DNA from: a bacterium | Lineage (GTDB): Bacteria; Patescibacteriota; Minisyncoccia; Minisyncoccales; DAOVPY01 | Length of the DNA stretch: 14,362 bases | Reading direction: 5' to 3' | Assembly: GCA_030596105.1 (NCBI GenBank) | Contig: JAUVKU010000019.1 | Location: 1 to 14,362, forward strand | Shown here: positions 2,418 to 11,075 of the stretch, piece after piece | How the letters are laid out: each line of letters begins with the position of its first letter | Numbering within the stretch: the first letter of the stretch is position 1 | Notes under the pieces: model-generated | Seen by the model: only the letters and a program-made list of their open reading frames with translations | What the model was told of the DNA's origin: nothing | Database searches by the model: none | Program-made: the position numbers and the translations under genes

Positions 2418-2460
2418 GCTGACCATATAGCGGTCAGCTATTTTGTTTTGGCTTTGTTTA
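2418..2460. repeat. Copy 2 of the hairpin repeat (GCTGACC-atatagc-GGTCAGC + TATTTTGTTTTGGCTTTGTTTA). Its tail supplies the stop codon of the minus-strand ATPase gene.
   Basis: Same stem and tail as copies 1, 3 and 4. The ATPase2 stop (TAA on the minus strand, 2460-2458) lies in the element tail. Confidence 0.8.
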
Positions 2461-3615
2461 GGAGATAAAATCTAAATAATTTTTTGGGGTAATGACTTTA
2501 AATTCGGCATTGTCATATGTGTCAAACCATAACTTGAGCGGTTTAACTTTTTTCTTAACATTCCATTTGAATTCATAACCATACAATTTACCATCTCTCT
2601 CTTCTATTAGGTCAATTTCTTTTTTGTCCCATGTTCGCCAGAAATATTGATTGGCATAAATTCGTTTATATGTCCGTGTTTTCATTCTTTCCAAAAAAAT
2701 AAAATTCTCCCACAATTGGCCGATATCATTGCGTAAATTAATAGCGTTAAAATTTTCTATAATCGCGTTTCTAATACCAATATCCAAGAAAAAATATTTA
2801 TCTTTTTTGGATATTTCTTTGCGTAAATTTCGACTAAACCCGCTCACACTCACAATAACAAAAGCCTTTTCCAATAAATCCAAATATCTGGCAACTGTCT
2901 TGTAGTCAATGTTTAAACTGTTGCTTAATTCTGTCAAAGATACTTCATTGCCGATTTGCCAGGCCAAAAGCTGTAATAAATCCCGTAAAATCTTTGGGCT
3001 TTTCGTCTTTTCCAAGGCTAAAACATCCTTTAATAAATATGAATCTGTGATTTCCATAAGTGCTTCCCTCTTTTTTCTATCTGTTTCGGCTGTAAGAACC
3101 TCCGGATAACAGCCAAAAAGCAATAATTGCTCTAACAGTTCATTTTGTAATTGATGCGGCGTGTAATATTTAGACAACTCTAAAACAGACAAAGGAAATA
3201 ATGTGTATGTGCGCTTTCTGCCTACTAATGGCTCTCCGATCTGACCGGCCAGCTCAAATGACGCTGAGCCGGTAACAATAATTTTAATATTTTCAACATG
3301 ATCAACAATGATCTTAAGGCCAAGGCCTATGTTGGGAATATTTTGCGCTTCATCAATAATCAATAATTCATAATCTTTGGCAAAACTAATTAAGCCATCA
3401 AAATCCGGCTCACTAAATATTGTCTTTAATTTCATATCATCTCCGGTGCTTTGAAAAGTTTTTAAAGTATTTTTTTCAGTAAAAATCTTTAGCAAGCTTG
3501 TTTTGCCTGCTTGCCTGGGGCCATATATTACCAAAACTTTTTGCGGCTGAAGCAATGAATTTAGATTATGCGCGCGATCAAAATATTGAATTTGCTTTTG
3601 AATTTGTAAAGACAT
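2458..3615 (-). CDS. AAA+ ATPase of the DUF4143/COG1373 family (P-loop ATPase plus PD-(D/E)xK-like C-terminal domain). Paralog of the gene at 66-1316.
   Basis: 385-aa ORF with Walker A GPRQAGKTS, Walker B LLIIDEAQ and C-terminal EIDLIEE...YEFKW (D...ExK). Collinear similarity to ORF 66-1316 across the full length. Confidence 0.85.
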   Translation of the reverse strand: MSLQIQKQIQYFDRAHNLNSLLQPQKVLVIYGPRQAGKTSLLKIFTEKNTLKTFQSTGDDMKLKTIFSEPDFDGLISFAKDYELLIIDEAQNIPNIGLGLKIIVDHVENIKIIVTGSASFELAGQIGEPLVGRKRTYTLFPLSVLELSKYYTPHQLQNELLEQLLLFGCYPEVLTAETDRKKREALMEITDSYLLKDVLALEKTKSPKILRDLLQLLAWQIGNEVSLTELSNSLNIDYKTVARYLDLLEKAFVIVSVSGFSRNLRKEISKKDKYFFLDIGIRNAIIENFNAINLRNDIGQLWENFIFLERMKTRTYKRIYANQYFWRTWDKKEIDLIEERDGKLYGYEFKWNVKKKVKPLKLWFDTYDNAEFKVITPKNYLDFIS

Positions 3616-3853: not shown

Positions 3854-4435
3854 CTATTTGTTAAAATAATTTTTTTCTACAAAATCAATTCCTGCTAAAG
3901 TGTTTTTTTCTTTTACAATTTCTCTTGCTCTTTTTGGGCTTAACCAATTTATCTCATAAAATTCTTCCAACACTTTATCAGCATCAGGCTTAAAGCTGTC
4001 TTTATCAACCTTAATAAAATACCAAATATCATAATGACGCTTACATGTTTGTTTGGATGGATTGTTAATTTTAGTAATAGTAAGTAAAGCCGGGTTTTTA
4101 ATCTCAAACATACTTATATCTAGCCCCCACTCCTCGTTAATTTCTCTCCGCAAGGCCTTACTCATTGTTTCTCCTTTATCAATATGTCCGCCATTAAACA
4201 GCCATAACCCGGATTTTTTATGGTGTCCAATAAAAACCTGTTTAGACTTTGGGTCATAAGCGGCAAAATAAACACAAAAATGACTCTCAGAATTTTCCTG
4301 AATTGTGAGCTTGTTTTTCTCAATTCTTTTTAAAAAACTTGCTACAATTGGGCTGTGGTTAAAACCGGCCAATAACTCTTCTAGCTCCTTAGATAAATTT
4401 TTATTAGCATTTGTCATTTTTTTATCTTTAACCAT
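3854..4435 (-). CDS. Nudix-family hydrolase.
   Basis: 193-aa ORF with a clear Nudix box, GGHIDKGETMSKALRREINEEWG (GX5EX7REUXEEXGU). Confidence 0.8.
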   Translation of the reverse strand: MVKDKKMTNANKNLSKELEELLAGFNHSPIVASFLKRIEKNKLTIQENSESHFCVYFAAYDPKSKQVFIGHHKKSGLWLFNGGHIDKGETMSKALRREINEEWGLDISMFEIKNPALLTITKINNPSKQTCKRHYDIWYFIKVDKDSFKPDADKVLEEFYEINWLSPKRAREIVKEKNTLAGIDFVEKNYFNK

Positions 4436-4493
4436 TTAAAATTATTTTATAACTTAATTCAAATATAGCAAAAGAAAGAGCTTGGAGCAAATA

Positions 4494-5468
4494 ATGACAA
4501 AAATTCTTATTTTTGATAAAATCAAATTAATACTAAAATCATTTTTTATGAAAAATTATCTATTACGAATTGAAAAAATAAAAAAGCAATGCGCTATTTC
4601 CGAGAAAGAGCGCTTTACAGCCGCTCCCAGCGGCACTAATTATAAAGTTTTTCTTTCAAATAGTTATGTTATCCGTTTTCGGGATGACAACACTGAGCTT
4701 TTATTAGAAGAAGTTAATTTTTTAAAACAACTTAAACATAAACTAATACCAAAAATTTTGTGGTCAGGAAAAATTGATCAATCATTCTTTATAGTTGAAA
4801 ATAGACTCCTGGGACAAACAATAGATTCAGTTTGGAAAAATCTTTCAATAAATAATAAAAATAATATAATTGAGCAGGTTGTTAAATTTTTACAGTATCA
4901 GAGAACTCAAACAAAAAATTATGTTTACTCAGTAAAAACAGGCAAAAAATATAAAAATTTTTTAGATTATCTCACAGACGGTATAAAGCAAAAAAATATT
5001 GATATCAAAAAATTTAAGCAAGCAAATAAATTATTAAATGATTTATTTTTAATTATTAATGACCCTAAAATAAAACAATTATTTTCCACTAAGACAAAGG
5101 CGGCCTTAGTTCACGGCGATCTTATTATTCATAACTTGCTTACAGATGGTAAAAATCTAACCGGAGTCCTTGATTGGGAGCTGGCACTATGGGGCGATCC
5201 TGAACATGACCTTTTTCGGCTTTTTTATTATCAAGAATGCGCTAAAGCCTACCAGGAACAAGGCACTGATGAAACATTTGAGGCTGATTATATGGACAAG
5301 CTAACCACAGCGATTTTGAAATCAAATCTGATAGAAGATAAAAAAATATTCCAGAAAAAATATCAATTTGTACGCGCTATTTTTTATCTCAACGCGCTTC
5401 ATTGGGCAGTAAATTCAGATAATCCAAAAAGAAATATCAATGAGCTTACAGGGCGGTGGGATAAATAA
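4494..5468 (+). CDS. Kinase of the aminoglycoside/choline/MTR-kinase (APH, PF01636-like) phosphotransferase family. Substrate unknown.
   Basis: Catalytic-loop motif HGDLIIHNLL and the DWE motif (VLDWELALWGD) are present. The ATG at 4494 is preceded by GGAG (4484-4487). The track ORF starts 4 codons earlier at TTG 4482. Confidence 0.7.
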   Translation: MTKILIFDKIKLILKSFFMKNYLLRIEKIKKQCAISEKERFTAAPSGTNYKVFLSNSYVIRFRDDNTELLLEEVNFLKQLKHKLIPKILWSGKIDQSFFIVENRLLGQTIDSVWKNLSINNKNNIIEQVVKFLQYQRTQTKNYVYSVKTGKKYKNFLDYLTDGIKQKNIDIKKFKQANKLLNDLFLIINDPKIKQLFSTKTKAALVHGDLIIHNLLTDGKNLTGVLDWELALWGDPEHDLFRLFYYQECAKAYQEQGTDETFEADYMDKLTTAILKSNLIEDKKIFQKKYQFVRAIFYLNALHWAVNSDNPKRNINELTGRWDK

Positions 5469-5487
5469 TAGACAAATTAAAAAAATT

Positions 5488-5916
5488 ATGAAAACAAATA
5501 ATCAAATTGAAGTAATAATCTTCAAGAAAAATCAGGAAACAGGCCTTAAATATTTAATGCTAAAACGCAACCTTCAAAAAGGTGGCTTTTGGCAACCAAT
5601 CACCGGGAATGTAGAGGTTGGTGAAACGTTTAAGCAAGCTGCGACACGTGAACTTAGAGAAGAAACCGGCATTACAAAATTTATAAAAATTTTTGACACT
5701 GGTTATTCATTTGATTTTTTTGATGACAATCGTAATCAACATGAAAAAATTTTTGCTGTTGAAGTTTCCCATAATACAAAAATAAATCTATCAGCTGAAC
5801 ACACCGAGTTTCAATGGGCCACGGAAAATGAATGTCTCACAAAATATTTAAAATATCCAGGCAATATAGCCGGACTAAAAACTTTAGCAAAAATATTGGA
5901 GGCTGAAAATAAATAA
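5488..5916 (+). CDS. Nudix-family hydrolase (second copy in the window).
   Basis: Nudix box GNVEVGETFKQAATRELREETGI. The ATG at 5488 avoids overlap with the upstream kinase. The alternative ATG at 5440 would overlap it by 29 nt, and neither has a good SD. Confidence 0.7.
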   Translation: MKTNNQIEVIIFKKNQETGLKYLMLKRNLQKGGFWQPITGNVEVGETFKQAATRELREETGITKFIKIFDTGYSFDFFDDNRNQHEKIFAVEVSHNTKINLSAEHTEFQWATENECLTKYLKYPGNIAGLKTLAKILEAENK

Positions 5917-6255: not shown

Positions 6256-6353
6256 TTTACAAAAAGCTAAACAAATGCTATAGTATTTCGAACCACAAGG
6301 TAGTCTTAAAAAAGTGAAAAGATCTTATACAATTTTAAAAAAAGGAGGATAAA
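6256..6353 (+). promoter_or_regulatory. Promoter and leader L1: TTTACA (6256-6261), 17-nt spacer, TGcTATAGT (-10 at 6279-6284), a ~60-nt leader, then SD AAGGAGG (6341-6347). About 85% identical to the promoter and leader of the convergent SerRS operon (L2).
   Basis: Direct comparison with the reverse complement of 10968-11075. The -35, spacer, -10, leader core (...CCAAG.TAGTCTT...AAAAGATCTT.TACAATTT.AAAAAAGGAGG) and SD are all conserved. Confidence 0.7.
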
Positions 6354-7577
6354 ATGGGATATAAACAAAAGTATTCTGAAATTGTTAATTTAGAAGCCGT
6401 AAATGAATTTATGACTGAAAGAGGATGGCAAAGGCGCTCGTGTGATACATGTGGTAGGACTTTTTTCTCTAAACCATCTACCAAAATTGATGTATCGATA
6501 TGTGGCTGGCATAAGTGCAATAAAGGACATTATCAATTCTGTACTTACTCCAAGCGTAAAAAGATGCTAGAACCTGTGCAAATTAGCTCAAAGATGAGTA
6601 AATATTTCCGCTCAGTCGGTTTCGAGCTAATAACACCTCGGAACATCGCTAATTTCAAAGGTCAGACTGACTTGGTCATCGCTGGTGTACAAATATTCGA
6701 TGATGTCATCCATCATAACCAAAAAATCTGCAAAGACAAAATGTTCGTGGTGCAACCATGTGTACGTATGCAATTCCAACCGCATGTCGAGTCACAAGAA
6801 GGGACATCGACATCTTTCGTAAACGTATGTACTGAAAATATGGAAGTAAATTTTAGAGAACATCTACAATTAGTAGATCACTGGTGTACGATTCTCTCAA
6901 AACTCGGACTTCACATGAACGATTTCATTATTACTATAAGAACATCAGTCAAAGACTGGGGGACCGGAAAATTCTCAGCACTTGAGCTCTTTTTCTCCTA
7001 CGGAGGACTCGAGCTTGGAGATGCCACCTATCTACTTATTCCCCAAGCGAGCCGGTCGGCTATCTCGATTAGTGATATTGGATTCGGACTCGAAAGAATT
7101 GTTTGGGCTATCAACAAAACCGATTCCTACTTCGATACGCTAATTCCTTGGACAGCGAATGGCACGCGTGAAATGTTCGACTCATGTCGAACGCTTGCGC
7201 TTCTGATTCTTTGTGGAGTACAGGCAACAAACAAGGGTCCAGGCCTCCAGTTTAGACGATTTGCAAAAGTGATTAGTGGAAAATACTACGGTGCGAATAT
7301 ATATGGCATTTTAAGGTATTATTTCGATTACTGGGCTCAATTCATTGAGCCGTCTATCAGCCGAGAATCCGCCATTCATCTCGCTCGTTTGGAGATCGAA
7401 AGATTCGTCAATCTGAAAATCTATAAAACTTTAAAACTCCCATCGCCTCGTGATGAAACGACAGAAACCTATTTCAATCGTTTGGTGTATACTTACAATA
7501 TCAACATTTATAAATTGCGTAAAGCAATGCAGGACGTGTTACCAAATGCCGAAAATCAGTACATTTCCAATTCTTAG
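6354..7577 (+). CDS. Paralog of the alanyl-tRNA synthetase catalytic (aminoacylation) domain. Truncated at 407 aa, with no tRNA-recognition, editing or C-Ala domains. It has a Cys/His-rich N-terminal extension (CDTCGR...ICGWHKCNKGH...C).
   Basis: Collinear matches to AlaRS N-terminal motifs. FRSVGFELITP..DLVIAGVQIFDDV resembles FL.FF.SKGH..V.SSSLVP.NDPTLLFTNAGMNQFKDVF. QPCVR matches the motif-2 region QRCVR. DIGFGLERIVWAINKTDSYFDT matches DTGMGLERIAAVLQ..NYD.DLF. LLILCGVQATNKGPGLQFRRFAKV matches FLIADGV.PSNEGRGYVLRRIIRR. The strong SD AAGGAGGataaaATG supports the start. Confidence 0.75.
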   Translation: MGYKQKYSEIVNLEAVNEFMTERGWQRRSCDTCGRTFFSKPSTKIDVSICGWHKCNKGHYQFCTYSKRKKMLEPVQISSKMSKYFRSVGFELITPRNIANFKGQTDLVIAGVQIFDDVIHHNQKICKDKMFVVQPCVRMQFQPHVESQEGTSTSFVNVCTENMEVNFREHLQLVDHWCTILSKLGLHMNDFIITIRTSVKDWGTGKFSALELFFSYGGLELGDATYLLIPQASRSAISISDIGFGLERIVWAINKTDSYFDTLIPWTANGTREMFDSCRTLALLILCGVQATNKGPGLQFRRFAKVISGKYYGANIYGILRYYFDYWAQFIEPSISRESAIHLARLEIERFVNLKIYKTLKLPSPRDETTETYFNRLVYTYNINIYKLRKAMQDVLPNAENQYISNS

Positions 7578-7644
7578 CGGCTTAAATAAGCTAAAAAATG
7601 GAAAACAATCAAAAATAGTCGTTTAGCAACAGTCCCCTATAAAC

Positions 7645-8340
7645 ATGCAAAACATAAAGGAGCACAATCGAATATATTTGTCGGGGGGTGGTAATGAGAA
7701 ACAATCATTTCCCCTCGACAAATTTTTTTTTCGTACATTGCCTAAAAATGGACGCTTTTTATATATACCTATAGCACTCCGTGGCCATAAGCTTTATGCC
7801 ACAACACGTTTTTGGATGAAGGGTATCACAAAATTTCACAAAAGAATAGATGTTCAGTTTGAAACAATGGATAATCCGTCAAAATATCAACTTAAAGATT
7901 TAAAAAAGTTTGATGGAATATATATAGGTGGTGGCAATACATGGAGCTTAATTCAAGAATTTAAAAACTCTGGATTAGCTAATATTTTGATTCAGTACAT
8001 TAAAGCCGGGGGTCATATATATGGAGGAAGTGCGGGAGCAATTATTATGGGGAAAAGAATTGACACTCACGATGATGAAAATAAAATGAATATAAAAGAT
8101 GTGTCTGGCTTTAATATCCTTAATAATTTTTCGATAACCTGTCATTTTACAGATGAACAAAGTAATAGATTTAAAGCATGGGCTATAAATAATAACTTAC
8201 CAATTATTTGCTTATCAAAAGAAACCGGCCTAATTATAGAAAAAAACGTCGCTTTATGCGTTGGCACTAAACCTTGCATTATTTATTTTGCCGATGGCAC
8301 AAAACTGAAAGTTACTCCTAAAAAATCTTTTAATCTATAA
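7645..8340 (+). CDS. Peptidase family S51 (PepE alpha-aspartyl dipeptidase / cyanophycinase-like).
   Basis: GIYIGGGNTWSLI matches PepE IIVGGGNTFQLL. GHIYGGSAGAII matches the catalytic Ser motif YIGWSAGANL. TCHF matches the catalytic His region NPHF. Confidence 0.75.
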   Translation: MQNIKEHNRIYLSGGGNEKQSFPLDKFFFRTLPKNGRFLYIPIALRGHKLYATTRFWMKGITKFHKRIDVQFETMDNPSKYQLKDLKKFDGIYIGGGNTWSLIQEFKNSGLANILIQYIKAGGHIYGGSAGAIIMGKRIDTHDDENKMNIKDVSGFNILNNFSITCHFTDEQSNRFKAWAINNNLPIICLSKETGLIIEKNVALCVGTKPCIIYFADGTKLKVTPKKSFNL

Positions 8341-8343
8341 AAA

Positions 8344-8372
8344 AGTACCCATATCTTAACGACATGGGTACT
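8344..8372. terminator. Bidirectional rho-independent-like terminator between the convergent operons: AGTACCCAT-N11-ATGGGTACT, with an A-run 5' and an AT-rich tract 3'.
   Basis: Perfect 9-bp inverted repeat (8344-8352 and 8364-8372). It sits in the 43-bp gap between the convergent stops at 8340 and 8384. Confidence 0.6.
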
Positions 8373-8383
8373 GAAATAATTAT

Positions 8384-9643
8384 TTAAAACAAATTTAATT
8401 CTCCTTTCACAATCTTCTGAGTAGTCTTGTTAATGTCGGCCAAATTGCGTTCGACAATCGCTTCGATCATCTGACGCTGATTAGACATTACTTTTTCACC
8501 ACAGACTTCAACACATGCAAACCATGGATTTGACAGACTTCTGCCCATCTGGGATGTCAGATATACATATGTTTCAAGTCCAATGAAACGATAAATCTCA
8601 TCAGAAATCAAAGAACAGATGGCGGTGTAAAGCTTGCCCACATGATAGACAGGATTCTTACCACAACAAGCCTCCATGCTCATATGCCGGGTAAATGGAA
8701 TAACGCCATTATGCCGATTACCTCGACCAACGACACCTTCGTCGCCACTCTCAATAGCGCTTCCCGTCAATGTGAGATAATAATCCGATTTGTTCAAGTT
8801 GTCTCTCGTGTTAAGCGAAACAGTGACATCGAACTGCCCAAACTTAGATACTACCAATTGCTTAATAAAATCTTCAAGGAATTGGAGCTTCTTAAAATAG
8901 AACTCCTTATCTGGGGTATAGACTGCAATAAACGGAATACAAACAGTGATACCTAAACGCTTTTTCATACGTTTGACCATTACCTTAATATCTGTGCCAA
9001 CATAGGGATAAAGCTTTTTGAACTCCTTCTCATTCAACGTGGTCTCAATGAACATCACGATTTTCTCGGTGGTGCTAAGAGGGCTATAAGCCACAGCCGT
9101 CGAGGTATCGTTGGAGCGCAGGTTGTTATCATGAAAAATCGCAAACTCCTTCTGTGGAATCTCAAAAAAGAACTGGCGTTCATTCTGTGTCGATCCATCA
9201 GCTTCGTATACAACACCGGGACCAGGCGCGCAATGAGTATTATCAACGATTGTGAGCCATTGATCCAGATCAAGAAGCGGCAGGACATTAACAAAATGCT
9301 TATAGACCGTCTCTTTGACAATCTTAAGATAAGGAATGTCTTCTTGCTGATAAGTTCTAGTAAACCGGCAGTTGAGATAAAGCCTAATCGGTTTTTGCAT
9401 CTCACCGCCACCGAACTTGACCTTTGTGGCACCACCCGACAATGCAATCTTGTCAACCATGTGCCGCAAGATGATACCATAGCGTTTTAAACAGTATTGT
9501 GAATACGCTTGAGACACTTTTTCTGCAATTGTGTCACAGAGAGTGTCAGGATGACCGATGCCTTTGCGTTCGACGATCTCAAATTCTGTGTTGTTGATGC
9601 TAGGCGTTCCTGACGAATAAACGAGTAAATTTTCTTTGTCCAT
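8384..9643 (-). CDS. S-adenosylmethionine synthetase, archaeal type (MAT; PF01941 family).
   Basis: GIGHPDTLCD matches the archaeal MAT GxGHPDSxCD. LTGSAIESGDEGVVGRGNRHNGVIPFTRHMSMEACCGKNPVYHVGKLY matches the archaeal MAT signature LTG(T)SAE.GDDG.VGRGNR.NGLI.P.R.MSMEAA.GKNPV.HVGKIY. Strong SD (AAAGGAGGtaataaATG) 34 nt downstream of the serS stop, so the two are co-transcribed. Confidence 0.85.
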   Translation of the reverse strand: MDKENLLVYSSGTPSINNTEFEIVERKGIGHPDTLCDTIAEKVSQAYSQYCLKRYGIILRHMVDKIALSGGATKVKFGGGEMQKPIRLYLNCRFTRTYQQEDIPYLKIVKETVYKHFVNVLPLLDLDQWLTIVDNTHCAPGPGVVYEADGSTQNERQFFFEIPQKEFAIFHDNNLRSNDTSTAVAYSPLSTTEKIVMFIETTLNEKEFKKLYPYVGTDIKVMVKRMKKRLGITVCIPFIAVYTPDKEFYFKKLQFLEDFIKQLVVSKFGQFDVTVSLNTRDNLNKSDYYLTLTGSAIESGDEGVVGRGNRHNGVIPFTRHMSMEACCGKNPVYHVGKLYTAICSLISDEIYRFIGLETYVYLTSQMGRSLSNPWFACVEVCGEKVMSNQRQMIEAIVERNLADINKTTQKIVKGELNLF

Positions 9644-9677: not shown

Positions 9678-10967
9678 TTAAAATTTTCTAGCTTTCGGTT
9701 TGATATATTGCAATCCTGTGTAATCTTGTAAAATTTCAGGAATTAACACTGTTCCGTCGGCCTGCTGGTTATTCTCGAGGATGGCGAGTATCGTTCGAGT
9801 AACAGCCACAGCTGTGCCATTGAGAGTATGAACGAAGTCGATCTTGCCAGTCACCCTATTCTTAAATTTAGTGTTCAATCGGCGTGCCTGGAAATCCGTA
9901 CAATTAGATGCAGAGGTTACTTCGCCGTATCCGCCACCTTCGCCGATAAAAGGCATCCATGCCTCAATATCATACTTTCGGTAAGCAGGCGTTCCGAGAT
10001 CGCCCTTGCACATAAGTAAAACTCGGTAAGGAAGCTCCAGTGCTTGGTAAAATTCTTCTTCAATCGCAAGCATCTCTTCGTGAACGATTGCACTTTTGTC
10101 TGGATGAACAAACTGATAAAGCTCAACTTTACTAAACTGGTGCACACGGTAGAGACCCTTACTTTCTCGACCACCACTTCCTGCTTCTGTCCTGAAACAG
10201 TGGCTGACACCCGAAATCTTGATTGGAAGATTTTTTTCCGGAATCACAGCATTAGCCATATAACCACCAAGAGTAATTTCAGAGGTGCCTATAAGGCTTA
10301 ATGCCCCTTTGGTCAGAGAATAAATTTGACTTTCAGGACCTCGCGGAGAGAATCCGGAAGCAGTGATGATCTTGTCACGAGCAATCTCCGGTGTCGTCAC
10401 CGGAGTAAACCCATGCTTAATTGCCAATTCTAACGCATAGCGAATAAGACCGAGCTCCAGAAGAACAGCTTCGTTCTTTAAAAAATAAAATTTGGAGCCA
10501 GTGACTTTTGCTGCTGCCTCGAAATCCAGGATATCCAATTTTTTGCCTAACTCGACGTGATCAAGTGGCTTGAAACCAAACTTAGTGGGCTCTCCGATGT
10601 ATTTAATAGGAACATTTCCGTATTCATCCTTGCCCTGTGGTACGTCCGATGCAACAAGATTAGGTATCTTAAGCATCTCCTCAGTGTACTCGTTTTCCAC
10701 AAACACAATCTCATCCTTAATGACCGCTATAGTTTGTTTGAGACCAACTACCTCTGCCTTGAGTTGTTTGCGAGTTGTCTTATCAGCACTCTTGAACCGT
10801 CCAGCAATCTGATTGGAACGACGCTGAATTTCTTCAAGACTCTGTCGCTTTTGTTTCAGTTGTCCATAAAGAGTAACTACTTTATCGACATCCACATTAG
10901 CATAGCGTTCACGCGTGTTCTGTTTAATTAAATCAACGTTTTTAAGAATAAATCTAATATCCAACAT
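9678..10967 (-). CDS. serS: Seryl-tRNA synthetase. Full length, with an N-terminal coiled-coil plus class II catalytic core.
   Basis: 429 aa. The motif-2/3 regions SHCFRTEAGSGGRESKGLYRVHQF, LELPYRV, GDLG and HTLNGTAVAVTRTILAILENNQ are typical of SerRS. SD AAGGAGG is upstream. Confidence 0.9.
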   Translation of the reverse strand: MLDIRFILKNVDLIKQNTRERYANVDVDKVVTLYGQLKQKRQSLEEIQRRSNQIAGRFKSADKTTRKQLKAEVVGLKQTIAVIKDEIVFVENEYTEEMLKIPNLVASDVPQGKDEYGNVPIKYIGEPTKFGFKPLDHVELGKKLDILDFEAAAKVTGSKFYFLKNEAVLLELGLIRYALELAIKHGFTPVTTPEIARDKIITASGFSPRGPESQIYSLTKGALSLIGTSEITLGGYMANAVIPEKNLPIKISGVSHCFRTEAGSGGRESKGLYRVHQFSKVELYQFVHPDKSAIVHEEMLAIEEEFYQALELPYRVLLMCKGDLGTPAYRKYDIEAWMPFIGEGGGYGEVTSASNCTDFQARRLNTKFKNRVTGKIDFVHTLNGTAVAVTRTILAILENNQQADGTVLIPEILQDYTGLQYIKPKARKF

Positions 10968-11075
10968 AACATATTCCTCCTTTTTTGAAATTGTAAAAGA
11001 TCTTTTTATCTCTCCAAGACTATCTTGGAATTCAAAATACTATAGCATTTGTTTGGTTTTTTGTAAAGTCAAATT
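10968..11075 (-). promoter_or_regulatory. Promoter and leader L2 for the serS-MAT operon: -35 TTTACA (plus 11062-11067), 17-nt spacer, -10 TGcTATAGT (plus 11039-11044), and a leader with a CCAAGA-TAGT-TCTTGG hairpin and SD AAGGAGG. Duplicate of L1.
   Basis: The reverse complement aligns base-for-base with 6256-6350 at roughly 85% identity. Confidence 0.7.

Follow-up and report, generated by a model that had tools for sequence, protein, structure and literature searches.

Is a stand-alone protein built like the N-terminal half of an alanyl-tRNA synthetase (AlaRS) still an enzyme of translation, or does it serve another pathway? This question is raised by a gene at positions 6354–7577 (+ strand) of contig JAUVKU010000019.1 (assembly GCA_030596105.1), from a bacterium classified in Patescibacteriota (Minisyncoccales, DAOVPY01); the whole stretch of 14,362 nt that was analyzed is referred to below as the window. 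The gene, here named AlaL, codes for a stand-alone, archaeal-type AlaRS-like protein of 407 aa, in a family in which ~394 aa is the norm. A preliminary description of the locus had offered two readings, the alpha half of a split housekeeping AlaRS or an enzyme that derives from AlaRS but has acquired a new function. Our analyses indicate that AlaL is probably a repurposed paralog rather than a translational AlaRS, because its active-site loop is changed throughout the family and because of its gene fusions and operon contexts.

Homology of AlaL to archaeal-type AlaRS

AlaL is firmly homologous to the N-terminal half of archaeal-type AlaRS. The NCBIfam model for archaeal AlaRS (TIGR03683) matched residues 18–265 with an E-value of 1.1e-11, at a score far under the family cut-off (43.8 vs 744.7 bits; for TIGR00344, 16.1 vs 457), and phmmer aligned residues 18–267 with Archaeoglobus fulgidus AlaRS (2ztg/3wqy, E ~1e-6). 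When the profile of the AlaL family was compared with an AlaRS N-terminal profile using HHalign, 325 columns were aligned with 99.85% probability (E 9.3e-31). A structural model, proposed in the preliminary description as a check, agreed with these results: the AlphaFold2 model of AlaL (pLDDT 89, pTM 0.89) was matched best by archaeal AlaRS in a Foldseek search (E 2.7e-16, TMq 0.68 to 3wqy), followed by bacterial and human AlaRS catalytic fragments and then by the bacterial GlyRS alpha subunit. Another proposed check, a Pfam scan for PF01411, returned no match to AlaL at E ≤0.01, although the homology is real by the four methods above; some AlaL relatives had sub-threshold matches to this model. 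The best sequence and fold matches were AlaRSs of A. fulgidus (3WQY/2ZTG) and P. horikoshii (2ZZE-G), and these matches, together with a 17-residue motif-2 loop (from Arg to Phe) that is shared with them, point to an archaeal-type AlaRS ancestry.

AlaL and archaeal AlaRS are collinear through the N-terminal Cys pattern, motifs 2 and 3 and the DHxR...PSN helical domain. Segments that had been singled out earlier were all found, namely QPCVR (residues 134–138), FVNVCTENMEVNF (155–167), GFGLER (243–248) and GPGLQFRRF (295–303), as was a Cys/His pattern close to the N-terminus (C30-x2-C33...C50-x2-H53-x-C55). The latter had been taken for a zinc-ribbon-like extension; it proved to be an inherited feature of archaeal AlaRS, whose residues 11–49 align with residues 18–64 of AlaL and have the same Cys-x2-Cys...Cys-x4-Cys pattern. 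This N-terminal Cys4 knuckle (C30, C33, C50 and C55; 6441–6518, + strand), a putative metal site, was aligned by phmmer with the A. fulgidus segment RKRCPKCGKHFW...ICGDPPC. Each of the four Cys residues was found in 89–99 of 148 family representatives, which share ≤50% identity and were used for all conservation counts below.

Alignments made by HHalign and hmmsearch also revealed a helical domain (7149–7535, + strand) equivalent to the tRNA-recognition, or latch, domain of AlaRS. Residues ~266–347 match its helices and motifs (DHxR...PSN.G.GY.LRR...EE), and the segment from ~347 to ~394 consists of predicted helices that were matched to AlaRS by eye only. The earlier statement that the tRNA-recognition, editing and C-Ala domains had all been lost is therefore correct for the last two only: the editing domain (PF07973) and C-Ala/DHHA1 (PF02272) are absent from AlaL, which stops at residue 407, whereas two true AlaRS sequences among the matches (P0323 and P0324) had both. 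AlaL also differs from archaeal AlaRS in lacking the beta-barrel Mid2 domain and in overall size (~395 vs ~900 aa).

Conservation and change in the active site

In the crystal structure of AlaRS with ATP and Ala, the adenine is sandwiched by two side chains, Phe of motif 2 and Arg of motif 3; the alpha-phosphate is contacted by the Arg of motif 2, and the alpha-amino group is held by a conserved Asp (PMC12143591). These ATP/alanine anchors had been suggested as a further check, and all four are retained in the AlaL family: R138 in 147, F155 in 146, R248 in 148 and D241 in 146 of the 148 representatives. Located by alignment and conservation counts, they fall within the motif 2 region (Q134-P-C-V-R138...E-G-T-S-T-S-F155-V-N157; 6753–6824, + strand) and the motif 3 region (I-S-D241-I-G-F-G-L-E247-R248; 7068–7097, + strand), in which D241 and R248 correspond to E. 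coli D235 and the motif-3 Arg. Besides the four anchors, Q134, P135, E247 (147/148), L283 and W327 are essentially invariant, and N157 (139/148), W177, W202, G222, D276, R279 and E347 are nearly so.

Other parts of the site have changed. The divergence noted earlier in the normally invariant FFEM segment of AlaRS was borne out, and it extends upstream: where AlaRS has RHxTFFEM, AlaL has its own signature, EGxSTSFVN, in which FFEM has become F-V-N. The Arg/His residues of the motif-2 loop (E. coli R85-H86-H87) are replaced family-wide (G150-T-S in the AlaL of the window), and Asp takes the place of E. coli N212 in 97 of the 148 representatives (D223 in the window). AlaRS reads the G3:U70 pair with an Asn and an Asp. 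The Asn (E. coli N303) corresponds to N293 of AlaL, which is kept in the window's clade and in 68 (46%) of the representatives, and the Asp (E. coli D400) has no confident equivalent, RLVYT of AlaL facing RLYDT of E. coli by eye. In the E. coli AlaRS sequence used for numbering, nine checked positions agree with the literature and N303 and D400 are one residue off.

Occurrence of the AlaL family

A protein database search detected 180 relatives. The 120 listed were 52–80% identical to AlaL (plus an identical entry) and mostly ~394 aa long; they carried Patescibacteria or Candidate Phyla Radiation (CPR) labels and, wherever a name was given, were called hypothetical proteins. An independent assembly of run SRR18936874 encodes the same 407-aa product as the window. 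When 1.84 billion cluster representatives were searched with a profile, 473 proteins were identified at E <1e-3, including 242 at E <1e-30, and nearly all of the 150 matches listed were 320–440 aa long. The family comprises at least 242 clusters at 50% identity, with most proteins measuring 360–420 aa. Scanning of species-representative genomes yielded 32 loci, mostly in Paceibacteria-type CPR bacteria, with additional loci in Nanoarchaeota, Woesearchaeota and other DPANN archaea at 30–35% identity; these genome-collection scans were pattern-limited and recovered only part of the family.

One contig (locus L040, 10001–21110, 26.5% GC) encodes AlaL together with a zeta-toxin/AAA_33-like kinase, an S-adenosylmethionine (SAM) synthetase (MAT) and seven glycosyltransferases, and it lacks the S51 hydrolase gene described below. 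Since genes for OprB and DsbA are present on this contig, the gene cassette described below appears to occur outside CPR and DPANN as well. No model for the AlaL family was found in Pfam, NCBIfam or PADLOC, and a PADLOC scan of AlaL and its two main partners gave no match, which argues against a known defence system. We found no account of the family or of its cassette in the literature searched. Repurposed paralogs of aminoacyl-tRNA synthetases (aaRSs) are already known, and a truncated AlaRS-like enzyme, AcmF, is among them; the AlaL family and its cassette appear to be undescribed.

Conserved gene neighbors

We compared 60 AlaL loci, comprising the window, 44 loci found via AlaL and 15 found via MAT, each with up to 10 kb of flanking sequence (individual loci are denoted by L numbers). 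In the window, AlaL and the gene that follows it form a pair on the + strand, and a convergent pair on the – strand consists of genes for seryl-tRNA synthetase (SerRS) and MAT.

The gene downstream of AlaL (7645–8340, + strand) codes for a 231-aa serine hydrolase of the Peptidase S51 family (PF03575, E 2.7e-24; 86.5 bits vs a cut-off of 23.9), hereafter S51. Across 30 cassette members, the residues of its Ser-His-Glu triad (S129, H167 and E192) were each conserved at 90% or more. S51 adjoins AlaL in 48 of the 60 loci, usually with a start that overlaps the end of AlaL by 13–16 nt in relatives, and one protein (P0195) is an AlaL-S51 fusion. Among distant loci, the divergence of AlaL was correlated with that of S51 (Spearman 0.70, vs 0.22 for AlaL and MAT).

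The MAT of the window (8384–9643, – strand; 419 aa) is of the archaeal type and belongs to a cassette-specific clade. It matched PF01941 with an E-value of 1e-107 (360.9 bits vs a cut-off of 27), missed the NCBIfam equivalog cut-offs (324 vs 553), and aligned from end to end with archaeal MATs of known structure (E ~1e-70; 1e-70 for PDB 6s81). Because of this full-length match, and because 59 conserved columns are identical between cassette and ordinary archaeal MATs, the cassette protein is still a MAT. It is distinguished by a conserved, clade-specific insertion at residues ~137–169 (9137–9235, – strand), just before the NDTS motif, which contains R156, F160 and P163 and is absent from ordinary archaeal MATs.

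The linkage of AlaL and MAT was evident in both directions. Of the 45 loci found via AlaL, 36 had a MAT gene no more than a few kb away, and seven of the other nine were contigs ending beside the gene. The reverse test started from the best 80 MAT relatives in JGI metagenomes, of which 18 were cassette-type MATs with usable flanks: AlaL was detected at 15 of these 18 loci and S51 alone at two more, and neither gene was near any of 59 ordinary archaeal MATs.

The bacterial-type SerRS gene (9678–10967, – strand; TIGR00414, 468 bits, above cut-off) lies upstream of MAT on the same strand. The preliminary description considered it co-regulated with AlaL. In the window, SerRS is not co-transcribed with AlaL, because it is on the opposite, convergent strand and behind MAT. 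SerRS is nonetheless a non-random neighbor: it adjoins AlaL in 29 of the 60 loci, where at least five arrangements were seen, among them SerRS→MAT→AlaL (L050) and the co-directional MAT→AlaL→S51→SerRS (L053 and L055).

No canonical AlaRS, and no C-terminal or beta half of one, was found in 1.25 Mb of flanking sequence (up to 10 kb per locus), except for an AlaX-like editing-domain gene in L124 (7312–7992). This gene is located directly 3' of an ordinary archaeal MAT, with AlaL not nearby, and is probably a coincidence.

Accessory genes and domain fusions

In several branches the cassette is extended by genes of inositol and sugar metabolism. The clearest example is L054 (443–6436), a co-directional six-gene operon with the order Ino1 (MIPS)→MAT→AlaL→S51→GT4→PIG-L, in which GT4 is a glycosyltransferase. 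Among curated families, the synthase came closest to mycothiol_INO1 and the PIG-L protein to MshB, Mca and BshB2, with all scores under cut-off. This operon is the clearest candidate for heterologous expression. L036 has a similar arrangement (MIPS→MAT→AlaL→S51-GT4→GT4→PIG-L), with the S51 domain fused to GT4. The same fusion occurs in L035 along with an inositol monophosphatase (IMPase) and an FkbM methyltransferase, and L031 has the order IMPase→MAT→AlaL→S51→GT4→radical SAM→HAD→methyltransferase. Overall, variants with IMPase, a HAD phosphatase, FkbM or other methyltransferases and a radical SAM enzyme were observed in L036, L049, L035, L031, L033 and L034. The set of Ino1, GT4 and PIG-L/LmbE accompanies AlaL in complete form in L054, L036 and L049 and in partial form in L031, L033, L034 and L035. 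An Amidohydro_2 gene was added in L038, L043, L044 and L061, and in L038 a BshA/MshA-like GT4 was present just upstream. In addition, P0213 and P0216 are fusions of AlaL with a methyltransferase.

Possible functions of AlaL

Of the two readings that had been put forward, a split housekeeping AlaRS finds no support in the gene context or in the altered motif-2 loop. The second reading, in which an enzyme derived from AlaRS has taken on a new function, fits the signature of the family, its coupling and fusion to S51, the methyltransferase fusions, and the operons with MAT, inositol, GT4 and PIG-L genes. The explanation we favor, though tentatively and at slightly less than an even chance, is that AlaL is a catalytically intact, non-translational descendant of AlaRS that acts as ligase or transferase within a conserved module also containing S51 and MAT. 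Since the ATP/Ala anchors are retained, formation of a small aminoacyl-adenylate is favored. AlaL would use these anchors to bind ATP and an amino acid the size of Ala, Ser, Gly or Cys, would form the aminoacyl-adenylate, and would then transfer the aminoacyl moiety to the amine of an acceptor other than tRNA. S51 would be the matching amidase, which may either expose or recycle the amine or strip the aminoacyl group, and SAM produced by the cassette MAT may feed a coupled or later step. AlaRS itself offers a parallel, in that its lactyltransferase activity passes the acyl group of an adenylate on to amines (PMC12143591).

In branches containing Ino1, IMPase, GT4 and PIG-L genes, the acceptor could be an amino-sugar-inositol glycoside. 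The operons with inositol, GT4 and deacetylase genes follow the same scheme as mycothiol synthesis (Ino1, MshA, MshB and MshC), which would put AlaL in the place of MshC, a CysRS paralog that ligates Cys to glucosamine-inositol. As in the mycothiol and bacillithiol pathways, an aaRS paralog is clustered with Ino1, GT4 and a PIG-L/LmbE deacetylase (L054, L036 and L049), and the proposed chemistry, transfer from aminoacyl-AMP to the amine of an amino sugar, would be that of MshC. However, MshC is derived from a class I synthetase, so the relationship is one of analogy and not homology, and the AlaL cassette differs from the mycothiol pathway in having S51 and MAT and in lacking an MshD-type acetyltransferase.

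Several observations weigh against this explanation. Loss of the motif-2 loop Arg/His residues and the presence of Asp at the N212 position could disfavor adenylate formation. A simple MshC-like scheme leaves the obligatory MAT neighbor unexplained, and the recurrent SerRS neighbor hints at the use of an aminoacyl-tRNA. Within the window's own clade (~25 loci), no GT4, MIPS, PIG-L or other accessory genes were found within 10 kb of AlaL. Certain data also have their own limits: the AlaL-S51 fusion is a single sequence and a possible indel artefact of two overlapping genes, the 400-bit score that separates cassette-type from ordinary MATs was set post hoc with a hidden Markov model built from cassette MATs, and the taxon labels are those of metagenome-assembled genome bins. 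No model accounts for the dedicated MAT clade, S51 and SerRS all accompanying AlaL.

The possible use of an aminoacyl-tRNA is best considered in comparison with AcmF, a truncated AlaRS-like protein of ascamycin synthesis in Streptomyces sp. 80H647 that consists only of the aminoacylation and tRNA-recognition domains (PMC12945691). The acceptor used by AcmF is an adenosine derivative, onto which it moves Ala, Gly or Ser carried by tRNA; the same gene cluster also encodes AcmD, an aaRS, and AcmE, a hydrolase (PMC12945691). Stand-alone paralogs of the AlaRS catalytic domain, thought at first to be undescribed, thus have a described member (PMC12945691). AlaL, compared here with the description of AcmF only, is likewise stand-alone, truncated to the same two domains, and encoded with a hydrolase and often an aaRS. 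It might therefore take an aminoacyl group from Ser-tRNA, supplied by the neighboring SerRS, or from Ala-tRNA, without activating amino acids itself; the acceptor, possibly SAM or a SAM-derived adenosine, would occupy the old adenylate pocket, and S51 would act as AcmE does. This proposal, the chief alternative although we regard it as unlikely, is the only one that assigns roles to all four conserved neighbors, and it is consistent with the retained latch domain, the N303 equivalent in the window's clade, the lost motif-2 loop Arg, the SerRS genes adjoining AlaL (some of them co-directional, as in L053 and L055), and the precedent of a truncated AlaRS-like protein clustered with an aaRS and a hydrolase (PMC12945691). 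However, AcmF has lost most residues for ATP/Ala activation (N219Q, D232E), whereas AlaL keeps every main ATP anchor (R, F and R) and its alpha-amino Asp is still Asp. The Asp of the pair reading G3:U70 was not located in AlaL, SAM offers no evident nucleophile at the position of the sulfamoyl nitrogen in the AcmF substrate, the AlaL-glycosyltransferase and S51-GT4 fusions suggest sugar acceptors, and about half of the loci are without SerRS. The two proteins differ further in that AlaL, an archaeal-type protein with a Cys4 N-terminus, has S51 and MAT as partners and is encoded in CPR and DPANN genomes, within core-like regions, AcmF being encoded in an actinomycete antibiotic cluster.

The MAT linkage suggests instead that SAM itself could be the ligand of AlaL, either as a substrate (for aminocarboxypropyl or methyl transfer to a small amino acid or amine) or as the signal by which AlaL regulates or senses the cassette MAT. 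SAM is shaped like an aminoacyl-adenylate, linkage of AlaL to a distinct MAT clade is reciprocal and near-obligate, the clade-specific insertion (R156, F160 and P163) is present with the 59 core columns otherwise unchanged, acidic residues have replaced those of AlaRS at the N212 position and within the loop of motif 2, and methyltransferase fusions exist (P0213 and P0216). HisZ, a HisRS paralog that regulates HisG, provides a precedent for the regulatory version. This possibility nevertheless appears quite improbable: invariant R138 would occupy the position of the sulfonium, the tightest partner by correlated divergence is S51 and not MAT, a pure regulator would leave the S51/glycosyltransferase fusions and the inositol/GT4 operons unexplained, and we know of no class II synthetase fold that uses SAM. 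Least probable, and indeed very unlikely in our opinion, is that AlaL is a minimal or split translational AlaRS that charges tRNA-Ala, with S51 replacing the editing domain or with a separate beta half as in Nanoarchaeum equitans. In favor of this reading, the four main catalytic anchors and, in the window's clade, the N303 equivalent are kept, AlaL is about as conserved as its housekeeping neighbors (57–80% identity vs 75–87% for SerRS), SerRS and, in L001, ribosomal protein genes are nearby, and CPR and DPANN hosts have reduced genomes. The N. equitans case is similar in that an N-terminal AlaRS fragment is encoded by a separate gene in an ultra-small symbiont, but the two halves there have ordinary AlaRS sequences and come back together as one enzyme, and AlaL differs in being shorter, with a diverged active-site loop and dedicated non-translational partners. 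Its score against the archaeal AlaRS model is a small fraction of the cut-off and the Pfam scan was empty, the motif-2 loop and N212 position are altered family-wide, and methyltransferase and glycosyltransferase fusions and MIPS-GT4-PIG-L operons are not expected for a housekeeping synthetase. Moreover, the L040 contig with OprB and DsbA suggests a Gram-negative host, which would be expected to have a normal alaS, and CPR and DPANN organisms have been reported to possess their own editing-domain 'small-AlaRS' (bioRxiv 10.1101/2023.05.29.542759).

Three other ideas were set aside. A SAM lyase, homoserine-lactone or azetidine-carboxylate route and an EF-P/aIF5A modification system had no supporting gene or residue evidence, and S51 as a glutamine amidotransferase was rejected because its nucleophile is Ser and not Cys.

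Sequence context of AlaL and other genes in the window

The AlaL gene is preceded by a GGAGG site (6344–6348), with the ATG five nt further downstream. A promoter-like site lies 5' of it (6256–6284, + strand; TTTACA-17-TATAGT with TG), identified by a consensus scan only and not functional evidence, and another consensus match lies 5' of the SerRS-MAT pair (11039–11067, – strand). The two share an identical sequence (TTTACA-17-TATAGT, with TG before), which thus precedes both the AlaL-S51 and the SerRS-MAT pairs; the total of promoter-like matches in the region was not above the shuffled expectation. A terminator-like hairpin was detected by a sequence scan between the convergent S51 and MAT genes (8344–8372, – strand). 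No riboswitch, T-box or tRNA was found in the window using Rfam (E ≤0.1) and ARAGORN.

DNA alignment with four relatives identified a lineage-specific 110-nt insertion (7532–7641, + strand) that is absent from all four. It swaps the conserved C-terminus of AlaL (..AIQTCK*, including a nearly invariant Cys) for DVLPNAENQYISNS*, and it splits AlaL from the start codon of S51, abolishing the usual overlap of start and stop.

Upstream of AlaL (3854–5916) are genes for a NUDIX hydrolase (– strand), an APH-family small-molecule kinase (+ strand) and a second NUDIX hydrolase (+ strand). NUDIX genes were also near AlaL in L003, L035 and L041, but overall they are not conserved neighbors. Further upstream, two adjacent small genes code for a BrnT-type toxin-like protein (1737–2015) and a CopG/BrnA-type antitoxin-like protein (2017–2289), the BrnT match being under the Pfam cut-off and the CopG match over it. 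On either side of this pair are paralogous AAA_14/DUF4143 ATPase genes (66–1316, + strand, and 2458–3615, – strand).

Implications

Paralogs of aaRSs such as MshC, AsnA, EpmA, HisZ and AcmF have each marked unexpected chemistry. The regulator HisZ, the amide synthetase AsnA and the protein aminoacylase EpmA/PoxA resemble AlaL in that a class II core is reused, usually beside a partner gene, and differ from it in their parents (HisRS, AspRS and LysRS) and in having no link to MAT or an S51 hydrolase. AlaL represents a large, strongly conserved family of 'hypothetical' proteins centered on CPR and DPANN, whose metabolism is poorly understood, and its fixed partnership with S51 and MAT, along with the inositol/GT4/deacetylase operons, provides a testable gene cassette. 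It is conceivable, although on balance doubtful, that MAT-AlaL-S51, with SerRS, constitutes an unknown core pathway of CPR, DPANN and some other reduced bacteria. Such a pathway might yield an aminoacylated amino-sugar-inositol product, either a mycothiol-like metabolite or an aminoacylated glycosylphosphatidylinositol-like glycolipid head group, or it might involve a synthetase fold acting on SAM from the modified MAT, in which case AlaL would be the first SAM-using or SAM-sensing protein with an aaRS fold. The product of the cassette could reveal a new low-molecular-weight metabolite, a new cell-envelope modification or a new role for the class II synthetase fold, and could also reveal why some bacteria carry an archaeal-type MAT.

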